Assembly: GCA_012813795.1 (NCBI GenBank) | Contig: GCA_012813795.1_4087.1 | Direction: 5' to 3' (one strand) | DNA from: a phage | Length of the DNA: 64,000 nucleotides | Shown: positions 22,574 through 24,484 of the stretch, piece after piece | How the letters are laid out: every line of letters starts with the position of its first letter | Position numbering within the stretch: the stretch's first letter is position 1 | Translations under genes and position numbers: made by a program | Notes under the pieces: model-generated | Told to the model about the DNA's origin: nothing | The model's input: the letters and a program-made list of their open reading frames with translations, nothing else | Databases searched by the model: none

Positions 22574-22738
22574 TCATCGGTGCACGATATGCATCAGTAC
22601 TTCTTCGTCTAGTTCAGTACTTAAGAATGCTTTGTACATGCACTTAACACGTATAACATCCCACATTCTAGAATCTAATGGTAGATAATAAGGATTCCAC
22701 TTTAATTTCTGGAGTTTCAGCCATTCTTCATGTGTCAT
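22574..22738 (-). CDS. MTHEEW mini-protein family member (54 aa)
   Basis: Hand-translated MTHEEWLKLQKLKW...; ATG overlaps the stop of the next copy (ATGA). Confidence 0.5.
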   Translation of the reverse strand: MTHEEWLKLQKLKWNPYYLPLDSRMWDVIRVKCMYKAFLSTELDEEVLMHIVHR

Positions 22739-22899
22739 ATTCGTACCATTATTTCAATAAAGAACCACTGATACGCTTCATGGTTTACAAGTTTATCGTA
22801 TTCTGCTGGGTCAGATAAGATTACCCAATGATATTTTCGCCAATTACCTATACCCGAATATCTAAAATTAATATCATTCATCCATTCTTCATGTGTCAT
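22735..22899 (-). CDS. MTHEEW mini-protein family member (54 aa)
   Basis: MTHEEWMNDINFRYSGIGNWRKYHW...; internal Met of track ORF 22735..22929. Confidence 0.5.
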   Translation of the reverse strand: MTHEEWMNDINFRYSGIGNWRKYHWVILSDPAEYDKLVNHEAYQWFFIEIMVRI

Positions 22900-23063
22900 G
22901 AGCGTATCATTAACTCCATTACAAACCATGTATAATAGCCATTCAACACATACATTTGAAGCTTTTCTGGTGTACTAATATACTCCCAGTGGTATGTTCT
23001 ACATATACCATCAACACCACTATATCTTTCTTTTAGATCGTTGATCCATTCTTCATGTGTCAT
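22896..23063 (-). CDS. MTHEEW mini-protein family member (55 aa)
   Basis: MTHEEWINDLKERYSGVDGICRTYHWEY...; stop overlaps next ATG. Confidence 0.5.
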   Translation of the reverse strand: MTHEEWINDLKERYSGVDGICRTYHWEYISTPEKLQMYVLNGYYTWFVMELMIRS

Positions 23064-23083
23064 GGTTTAACCTTTAATTAAAA

Positions 23084-23165
23084 TTGGCCCAGGCGACAGG
23101 ACTCGAACCTGCATACTCCAGTTACTCGATTAACGACGGTTTAGAAGACCGTTGAGATACGCCCG
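23084..23165 (-). tRNA. atypical tRNA-like element (good T arm/acceptor, Arg-type UCU anticodon hairpin displaced)
   Basis: 3' end GCAGG-TTCGAGT-CCTGT-CGCCTGG-G-CCA pairs with 5' CCGGGCG; hairpin ACGGT-CTTCTAA-ACCGT present but no canonical D arm. Confidence 0.4.
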
Positions 23166-23169
23166 GATG

Positions 23170-23259
23170 TTGGCGGTGAAGGTGAGATTCGAACTCACGG
23201 AGGACTTTCACCCTCGCTAGTTTTCAAGACTAGTGCATTAAACCGCTCTGCCACTTCAC
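23170..23259 (-). tRNA. tRNA-Ser (anticodon UGA), class II, CCA encoded
   Basis: Acceptor GGTGAAG/CTTCACC, anticodon arm CTAGT-CTTGAAA-ACTAG, long variable arm, T arm GTGAG-TTCGAAT-CTCAC. Confidence 0.75.
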
Positions 23260-23309
23260 CAGTACTAATAATTATATCACATCTTTTTGAGTTGTCCAAG
23301 ATTTTTTGA

Positions 23310-23378
23310 AGCGGCATTTCGAAATCGAATCGAACAGCAGTGGAAATCGGAAGTTTCACCTCGCACCTTGCGATGCCG
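23310..23378 (-). ncRNA. tRNA-like remnant (7-bp acceptor-like stem + T-arm-like hairpin)
   Basis: GCGGCAT...ATGCCGC closing stem, TTCGA-TTCGATT-TCGAA hairpin; no full cloverleaf. Confidence 0.25.
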
Positions 23379-23397
23379 CATAGTACTATTTATCTTG

Positions 23398-23574
23398 TTA
23401 TTTTTTGTCTCTAACCGCAAGCTCAAAGATGATCCAGTGATTACTGTTTTCATCTAGTACACTACATGCGAACTTACATTTATTGCGTAAAATATCGTAA
23501 TGTCCATCAATAATACCATTACCAAATCGATCATATTTATTCTTTAATAGATTAAGCCATTCTTCATGTGTCAT
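23398..23574 (-). CDS. MTHEEW mini-protein family member (58 aa)
   Basis: MTHEEWLNLLKNKYDRFGNGIIDGHYDILRNKCKF...FELAVRDKK; ATGA overlap with upstream gene. Confidence 0.5.
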   Translation of the reverse strand: MTHEEWLNLLKNKYDRFGNGIIDGHYDILRNKCKFACSVLDENSNHWIIFELAVRDKK

Positions 23575-24074
23575 TTACGTTGCATCCAATGTGAGCCAGT
23601 CCATACTTTTTTCTTTTCACGTTCTATCTGTCGTTTTTTTAATTCTTCATCCCACAGGATATTGTCATTCAAGAAATAGTCATATAGTTCTTTTAATTTC
23701 AAATTATCAGAAAATGCGGGAAAGTACTTATTATCGCATACCAAGCTCTCTTGGAAATGTGCATCTTCATCTGTGATGTATCGATATGTAAAAATTCTAT
23801 TCGGGTTTGGATAGATACCATTTGTTTCAGAGAAACATTTTCTAAGTAGACTTTTACCAAAATCACAGATAATAGTGTCTTTACGAACAAAATTCCAGCG
23901 AGTAACCATTGTAATTGTTAGAGTTTGATAATTCTGATCTAAGCTTATTCGATGTTCACCATCTTTGTGCTTATAGTGATAAGTGCCCTGTTTTCGAACT
24001 GTTCGTTCAAACTCATTAATATTAATTTTACTTAAAATTTCAGTAATACTTTCCGGTACATGCGTAATGAGCAT
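23571..24074 (-). CDS. hypothetical protein with internal EE-x-FQ-like motif
   Basis: 167 aa; contains TDEDAHFQESLV. Confidence 0.5.
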   Translation of the reverse strand: MLITHVPESITEILSKININEFERTVRKQGTYHYKHKDGEHRISLDQNYQTLTITMVTRWNFVRKDTIICDFGKSLLRKCFSETNGIYPNPNRIFTYRYITDEDAHFQESLVCDNKYFPAFSDNLKLKELYDYFLNDNILWDEELKKRQIEREKKKVWTGSHWMQRK

Positions 24075-24119
24075 TATTGATCTCCTGTTTAAAACAAAAG
24101 AATAGCATATATATCAGTA

Positions 24120-24302
24120 CTAGTCAATTTTTTTACCTCTAACCGCAAGCTCATAGATGAACCAGCGATTACTATCCTCATCCAAGACAAATGATTTGAA
24201 CTTGTTCTTATCTTTTAAAATATCATAATGACCCTGGCGTACACCAAAGCCAAAATGATCATGTTTGAATTTTAATTCATCTAACCATTCTTGATGTGTC
24301 AT
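24120..24302 (-). CDS. MTHEEW mini-protein family member (MTHQEW...; 60 aa)
   Basis: Paralog of 23398..23574 (…YELAVRGKK); internal Met of track ORF 24120..24350. Confidence 0.5.
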   Translation of the reverse strand: MTHQEWLDELKFKHDHFGFGVRQGHYDILKDKNKFKSFVLDEDSNRWFIYELAVRGKKID

Positions 24303-24484
24303 GTGTAACATCCAGTTGTTCGTGCTATAGCGTACATAGTCCCATAGCAATCATAATAGCTAATGATCGAATTGAAATAATCATCACTATCACGTAAAAT
24401 ACTTCCAAGACCACCGAATGCGAAGAAGAAAATATCATTTTCATACAGTTTATCGTTTCTTTTATGCCATTCATCTAGTGTCAT
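24299..24484 (-). CDS. MTHEEW-like mini-protein (MTLDEW...)
   Basis: 61 aa; stop overlaps the ATG of the next copy. Confidence 0.45.
   Translation of the reverse strand: MTLDEWHKRNDKLYENDIFFFAFGGLGSILRDSDDYFNSIISYYDCYGTMYAIARTTGCYT

Follow-up and report, generated by a model that had tools for sequence, protein, structure and literature searches.

The 'monkey-wrench' genes of T4 and the host-takeover module of SPO1 are early clusters serving takeover of the host, and the transfer RNA (tRNA) regions of T4 and T5 are hotspots for small open reading frames (ORFs) and free-standing homing endonucleases. A third system of relevance is the hyperplastic internal protein (IP) locus of T4, whose products share a conserved N-terminal capsid-targeting sequence, are packaged, and become N-terminally cleaved. 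Likenesses to each of them are met in the locus described here, which lies in a 64,000-nucleotide stretch of phage DNA (contig GCA_012813795.1_4087.1 of GenBank assembly GCA_012813795.1; the whole stretch is called the window) and holds six short ORFs of the MTHEEW type in a tRNA region, named m1 to m6 by rising window coordinate (Table 1). Judged by their substitution patterns, the six are genuine protein-coding genes under purifying selection, and all of them are paralogues, five close and one distant. Taken as a whole they are best explained, with about an even chance of this being right, as an early, tandemly amplified family of cytoplasmic mini-proteins that bind host targets.

The closest parallel to such a reading comes from the Rak2-like phage CBB, in which RpoD-like promoters cluster among short hypothetical ORFs, seen by the authors as early host-takeover genes (PMC5259590). 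With the CBB_390-546 region the locus shares head-to-tail short genes of no assigned function behind strong sigma-70-type promoters, in a variable accessory region; the CBB host-takeover clusters, however, consist mostly of unrelated genes, whereas here one fold is amplified and the early timing is predicted. The T4 and T5 tRNA regions (for CBB, see PMC5259590) are similar in having small ORFs and homing-endonuclease genes (here an HNH/NUMOD4 gene) among the tRNA genes, together with a mosaic gene content, but their small ORFs are not known as one paralogous family, in contrast to the single amplified family of the present locus.

Coding evidence and family membership

The window was assigned to the Asteriusvirus jumbo coliphages (PBECO4/121Q group, about 350 kb), phage A4 being the closest relative by megablast; it is AT-rich (34.5% G+C), and the minus strand carries 116 of the 119 genes of a crude call. 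All six ORFs of the original prediction are present at the coordinates given, and all are on that strand. Nine related phages have the copies in frame and in the same orientation as the tRNA genes, annotated as hypothetical proteins; among GenBank phages in general, at least 35 carry the genes under this annotation. Failure of the frames to persist in related genomes had been named as an argument against the prediction; in the nine Asteriusvirus relatives the frames are kept, with ratios of nonsynonymous to synonymous substitution (dN/dS, Nei-Gojobori) of 0.23-0.44 within five ortholog groups (m1 0.24, m2 0.38, m4 0.23, m5 0.29) and with third positions being the most variable. Length and hydrophobic pattern are retained even in contigs with less than 40% identity. 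From copy to copy and between lineages, the start motif is encoded by different synonymous codons (Thr ACA/ACG/ACT, His CAT/CAC, Glu GAA/GAG), and the conserved start is constrained at the protein level, not at the DNA level. Chance ORFs or a DNA-only repeat were rejected on the basis of dN/dS and the synonymous motif variation. The identical 18-nt sequence ATGACACATGAAGAATGG occurs in four window copies; a nucleotide-level signal in it was likewise rejected, since ACG, ACT, CAC, and GAG variants exist.

Pairwise identity across the six copies spans 20-64%, and a C-terminal W-F-x-x-E-h-x-V-R motif is common to the copies, plus an invariant arginine. The concern that conservation might stop after the first six residues proved unfounded, as it spans the whole of the approximately 55 residues. 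The copies m1-m5 align with positions 1-55/56 of phrog_10970, a profile that has 56 positions and no assigned function (E values of 6.5e-15 to 1.6e-28). For m6 no match to this profile was found; its residues 2-54 align to positions 5-55 of the 61-position profile phrog_31562 (unknown function, E 1.2e-5). The claim of one repeated, conserved family is thus upheld as it stood for five copies and has to be amended for the sixth, a distant paralogue in a separate PHROG, which is linked to the others only profile-to-profile. That the function of these genes in the tRNA region is unknown, as had been stated, agrees with the PHROG families and the GenBank annotations, neither of which gives one.

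Compared directly as a single sequence with the core profile, m6 is undetectable (hhalign probability 3.5%); the profile of the m6 subfamily, compared with that of the core family, gives an hhalign probability of 93% (E 3e-7, 43 columns). Furthermore, m6 orthologues (MQPKTFDEW...DDFGTYFSIAV) are located directly upstream of the m5-type gene in other Asteriusvirus genomes, m6 homologues are found within metagenomic arrays (phmmer E 6e-7 to 3e-5), and in the arrays both subfamilies stand side by side, their predicted helix patterns being alike. It is because of the orthologue position, the array homologues, and the profile-profile match that all six are regarded as paralogues, and by these sequence relationships phrog_10970 and phrog_31562 form a single superfamily. 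The PHROG databases list them as two unrelated function-less families, the paralogy being absent there.

The protein m5 is 100% identical to a phage A4 protein. A library-wide profile search (1.84 billion representative proteins) returned 26 matches, 23 of which are stand-alone proteins of 43-64 residues, nearly all starting with MTHxEW. The possibility that the family is a domain of larger proteins was rejected, as the three long proteins (571, 1357, and 2644 residues) match only over short stretches and with weak E values (3e-6 to 9e-5).

Distribution and tandem amplification

With tblastn the family was detected in 35 Escherichia and Salmonella Asteriusvirus records and nowhere else, and a scan of viral contigs for wider taxonomic spread returned 121Q only; Klebsiella phage K64-1 has a syntenic tRNA cluster without a detectable family member. 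Hypothetical coding sequences of Asteriusvirus genomes (A4_142-147; 121Q gp114/118/121/125-127; phAPEC6 gp094c-101c) are the same genes as those of the window. Within the window, a six-frame scan found the start M[TS][HLQ][EDQ]EW only at the six ORFs, and a hidden Markov model (HMM) of the five core copies revealed no additional copy (next best E = 0.25).

In each of the ten Asteriusvirus loci compared, the mini-genes lie among tRNA genes and share their strand. An ortholog of m1 is present in all nine relatives and is always the final gene of the tandem block, which after tRNA-Ser comprises two copies in A4, PBECO4, JP4, and UE-S1, and three in the window, 121Q, WPEC3, EC.P1, ph0011, and Turkey3. 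Compared with A4, the window has m3 as an insertion of exactly one gene: homology is lost 31 nt inside m3 and regained at the ATG of m2. Mosaic junctions between phages are repeatedly located in or at the conserved 5' motif (window positions 23032/22900, 24467, and 24302), and relatives have a tRNA-Gly module in place of the 167-residue ORF. By these sequence comparisons, the paralogues arose by tandem duplication, and entire gene units are still being added or removed, the breakpoints lying in the conserved 5' end of the genes; such unit-wise gain and loss would fit unequal crossing-over between paralogues.

The repeated position of the breakpoints in or at the 5' motif brings up an explanation at the DNA or cis level, according to which the motif would be a recombination linker, or translation of the short ORFs would shield the tRNA transcript from Rho termination or decay, the peptides being incidental. 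The 18-nt identity of four window copies and the sharing of transcripts with untranslated tRNAs would also be accommodated. This explanation is nevertheless very unlikely, given that the dN/dS values indicate selection on amino-acid sequence, that the motif codons vary synonymously, that a consistent helical fold is predicted in two subfamilies at about 20% identity, and that length and hydrophobic pattern persist in contigs below 40% identity.

The amplification goes further in uncultured relatives. Metagenomic contigs of a sister lineage (L010, L011, L015-L017) carry arrays of about 22-27 consecutive ORFs of 50-65 residues, spanning 7167-11644 in L010, 7223-10639 in L011, and 81-4378 in L017. 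The array-bearing lineage is represented by the accessions ERR4503900, SRR30815946, and SRR34023382-85. The flanks of the array contigs share about 70% identity with Asteriusvirus and with Klebsiella Alcyoneusvirus alike, and their gene order is syntenic with the window; in both, a DUF1353 gene is found upstream of the family. In L010 and L011, 32 array ORFs are united by an iterated profile. Each array ends upstream of tRNA-Leu(taa), with which the tRNA cluster begins, at a distance of 50-300 nt. Closely related samples (L015 compared with L016 and L017) differ as to which units are intact. Several array ORFs (e.g., L010 8370, 8531, and 9061) are beyond the reach of the iterated profile and may represent further, more divergent subfamilies.

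Predicted structure and the N-terminal motif

The six proteins have isoelectric points (pI) of 4.5-6.9 and a negative grand average of hydropathy (GRAVY); aromatic residues make up 17-26% compared with a background of 14%, and tryptophan 4.4% compared with 1%. AlphaFold2 models, built with family alignments, place helices at residues 3-14, 23-30, 32-40, and 47-56 of m5 (predicted local distance difference test score, pLDDT, 74), and at 3-13, 15-24, 26-31, 33-41, and 46-56 of m6 (pLDDT 83.6), such that the helical fold is predicted alike for two subfamilies sharing about 20% identity. The mini-proteins are accordingly modeled as soluble, cytoplasmic, stand-alone proteins of about 7 kDa with four or five short helices.

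In helix capping, the capping box has the form S/T-x-x-E, and a hydrophobic staple is formed between positions N' and N4. Along these lines, the motif M-T-H-x-E-W can be rationalized as a putative helix start, with Thr2 as N-cap, Glu5 as N3, and Met1 (N') and Trp6 (N4) as the staple, which matches the helix onset predicted at residue 3 in both models. A metal-binding role of M-T-H, of the amino-terminal copper and nickel (ATCUN) type, was dropped, because many array members have K, Y, F, or I in place of His3.

A conserved N-terminal motif on fast-diverging paralogues, in a locus that differs between close relatives, is reminiscent of the T4 IP locus, a likeness to be taken as a lead only. It suggests that the N-terminus might be a capsid-targeting or protease signal, and that the variable bodies are packaged and injected to disarm host defences. 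The motif does contain x-x-E, as do the prohead protease sites of T4 and phiKZ, but it has just six residues; a propeptide of four to five residues would be too short, the T4-type signal having about 10, and helix 1 is predicted to comprise residues 3-13, with Trp6 as a conserved core residue. The promoters of the locus are sigma-70-like and not of the late ATAAATA type described for relatives (PMC5259590). Phage phAPEC6 has a capsid inner body; its family members gp094c-gp101c, unlike the T4 IPs, are not among the 62 virion proteins identified by mass spectrometry (MS), although small proteins are easily missed by this technique, and the virion protein list jumps from gp078c to gp149c (PMC7247149). 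A virion component was provisionally rejected on the basis of the phAPEC6 proteome, and the injection of packaged family members is considered highly improbable.

Organization of the locus

On the minus strand the order of elements is hairpin, 71-residue ORF, m6, m5, 167-residue ORF, m4, promoter, tRNA-Ser, tRNA-like element, m3, m2, m1, and promoter cassette; their coordinates are compiled in Table 1. The four ATGA stop/start overlaps described earlier were all recovered, and the ORFs do flank the tRNA-Ser/tRNA-like cluster, which sits between m3 and m4. As ATGA overlaps are frequent genome-wide (about 17 of 117 junctions in the crude gene call), this chaining of the mini-genes is typical of the genome and nothing special.

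Table 1. Features of the mini-gene locus in window coordinates (aa, amino acids)
Feature	Position	Strand	Remarks
HNH/NUMOD4 homing-endonuclease gene	21124..21681	-	interspersed with tRNA genes
sigma-70-like promoter cassette	22536..22563	-	TTGACT-16-TATAAT; ten bases past m1 stop; starts next unit
m1	22574..22738	-	54 aa; WNPYYLPLD...EVLMHIVHR type; phrog_10970, E 1e-24; start in ATGA overlap with m2 stop
m2	22735..22899	-	54 aa; NDINFRYSGIG...WFFIEIMVR type; phrog_10970, E 1.6e-26; start in ATGA overlap with m3 stop
m3	22896..23063	-	55 aa; own AAAGG ribosome-binding site; phrog_10970, E 6.5e-15; ortholog P0017
tRNA-like element	23088..23166	-	between m4 and m3
tRNA-Ser(tga)	23171..23260	-	60.5 bits (Rfam); same orientation as mini-genes, directly upstream of m3-m2-m1
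sigma-70-like promoter	23271..23298	-	TGGACA-16-TG-TATAAT; 11/12; extended -10
m4	23398..23574	-	58 aa; FGNG...WIIFELAVR type; phrog_10970, E 1.2e-24; start in ATGA overlap with stop of 167-aa ORF
167-aa ORF	23571..24074	-	phrog_22160 (unknown function); between m5 and m4
m5	24120..24302	-	60 aa; phrog_10970, E 1.6e-28; start in ATGA overlap with m6 stop
m6	24299..24484	-	61 aa; distant paralogue; phrog_31562 subfamily, E 1.2e-5
71-aa ORF	24486..24701	-	phrog_25670 (unknown function), E 4e-42; GAGG ribosome-binding site; first gene of upstream unit
intrinsic-terminator-like hairpin	24723..24746	-	10 pairs followed by T7; closes preceding unit

For two of the genes the mechanically called ORFs are longer, with m2 having 64 residues (22735-22929) and m5 76 residues (24120-24350), both starting with TTG or ATG within the preceding gene, and the 64-residue form is used by some database clusters (P0015, P0020, P0021). 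Conservation, together with the ATGA junction, marks the shorter MTHEEW start as the real one.

The promoters match the consensus in 11-12 of 12 positions, and a terminator is also present. The promoter upstream of tRNA-Ser is the presumed start of a unit composed of tRNA-Ser, the tRNA-like element, m3, m2, and m1. Since the homology to all relatives resumes exactly at this promoter, the module of promoter, tRNA-Ser, tRNA or tRNA-like element, and two to three mini-genes is regarded as conserved. A near-identical sigma-70-like cassette of 28-29 nt (TTGACTAAATAGTTCAGTAYTG.TATAAT) occurs three times within 1.5 kb on the minus strand (21074-21102, 21675-21702, and the copy behind m1), and an identical copy of 31-33 nt is found elsewhere in relatives, e.g., before tRNA-Gly in A4; this suggests that the promoter cassettes are mobile or duplicated regulatory units at module boundaries.

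The tRNA-like element scores 32.6 bits with Rfam RF00005 (gathering score 29) and is not called by ARAGORN. An acceptor arm, a T arm, and an anticodon arm with a TCT loop can be recognized in it, along with a long extra region; a normal D arm is missing in the alignment with canonical tRNA-Arg. Across its length it is identical in 121Q and WPEC3 and differs by one base in PBECO4, while JP4, ph0011, and UE-S1 have a canonical tRNA-Arg(tct) in its slot; in the 121Q record it is entered as tRNA-Leu(taa). Instead of a pseudogene in decay, the element may be a non-canonical tRNA that has been conserved, or a processing element.

Just downstream of the NUMOD4/HNH gene lies a tRNA-Ser with the unusual anticodon ACT (A34; 20972-21063, minus strand). 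It is distinct from the tRNA-Ser(GCT) gene of A4 and PBECO4, which lack both endonuclease and ACT tRNA in the loci examined. GCT tRNA, HNH gene, and ACT tRNA are all carried by JP4, WPEC3, ph0011, and Turkey3; 121Q has the ACT tRNA, and its annotation shows no HNH gene in the locus. That endonuclease and tRNA-Ser(ACT) frequently occur together may reflect homing.

Another feature of the window is the palindrome AGTACT (often CAGTACTG), with 146 copies against 15.6 ± 4.2 expected from dinucleotide shuffles, an approximately ninefold excess. It is by far the commonest hexamer palindrome (the runner-up has 60 copies; positions include 22543, 23261, 23382, 24116, 24496, 24726, 24738, 25762, and 25772), and because 124 of the 146 copies are within coding sequence, it is a genome-wide and not an intergenic feature. 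Some copies are nevertheless situated in promoter spacers, and both arms of a terminator contain one. The palindrome might serve as a signal for methylation or packaging or be related to restriction.

Proposed function

As to their role, the mini-proteins are assigned, with moderate confidence and from their context, an accessory function directed at the host, in takeover or counter-defence. This view derives from their being small, soluble, presumably early, co-transcribed, translationally coupled, lineage-restricted, and amplified unit by unit, and from their diversification between paralogues along with conservation within ortholog groups, a combination that is common among accessory proteins aimed at the host. 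Host RNA polymerase would transcribe the mini-genes from the sigma-70-like promoters as presumed early polycistronic units, one of which would have tRNA-Ser and the tRNA-like element at its 5' end, and translation would be chained by ATGA stop/start coupling. The invariant N-terminus would be a structural device, in that the capping box (Thr2/Glu5) and the staple (Met1/Trp6) lock helix 1 of a very small fold. With a conserved aromatic core and a variable surface, different paralogues could address different partners, and the linkage to tRNA genes would reflect a shared early hyperplastic genome region, not a direct part in tRNA biology.

Several observations weigh against this proposal. Consensus promoter matches in the region are no more numerous than in shuffled sequence (26 vs 27), and it is from these matches that early expression is inferred, as a literature search turned up no transcriptome for any Asteriusvirus. 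The mini-proteins have no match in Pfam, NCBIfam, PADLOC, or the PDB, nor any fold match. The capping-box and staple reading is derived from the motif and the predicted helix start and not from coordinates; moreover, the staple needs Met1 to be retained, and a threonine at position 2 usually permits removal of the methionine. Finally, that the family stays next to tRNA genes in two lineages could point to a tRNA-related role.

Phage tRNAs can counter tRNA-cleaving defences, and according to the main rival explanation the mini-proteins might be inhibitors or decoys of host anticodon nucleases, or helpers in tRNA binding or processing, forming one counter-defence island with the spare tRNAs. Their same-strand interleaving with tRNAs in all ten Asteriusvirus loci, the module conserved from its promoter onward, and the sister-lineage arrays abutting a tRNA cluster are all in keeping with this, and the many diversified paralogues would suit an arms race. 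On the other hand, the proteins are neutral to acidic and display no RNA-binding motif or fold, other genes part some copies from any tRNA, and K64-1 has the syntenic cluster without the family. In addition, small ORFs and homing endonucleases tend to gather in tRNA regions of large phages generally, as exemplified here by the HNH gene, and such a tRNA-linked function is thought unlikely. Still more doubtful is the specific version in which the family consists of diversified small inhibitors or decoys acting against host tRNA-targeting immune nucleases, co-transcribed with replacement tRNAs as a single counter-defence island; if it were true, the arrays of about 25 genes would be the trace of an arms race with numerous host systems of this type.

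Significance of the family

A literature search found no paper that mentions the motif or describes the family, the paralogy between its two PHROGs, its tandem amplification, or the arrays of about 25 genes. Three points appear to be new, namely the union of two PHROGs in one superfamily, the gain and loss of copies as whole units, and the arrays of about 25 genes beside tRNA clusters in uncultured relatives. The locus exemplifies the tandem amplification of an accessory gene family within a hyperplastic part of a phage genome; a new mechanism or kind of system is not involved. For annotation, both PHROGs should be merged, and the short MTHEEW starts should be fixed where gene callers sometimes choose longer ORFs.

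The family, with five to six copies in each cultured phage and about 25 in each uncultured relative, shows how accessory genes expand by unit-wise tandem duplication beside tRNA clusters, and offers a tractable entry into the roughly 80% of jumbo-phage genes that have no known function. If its members do bind host targets, they would constitute a natural library of 7-kDa binders on one scaffold.

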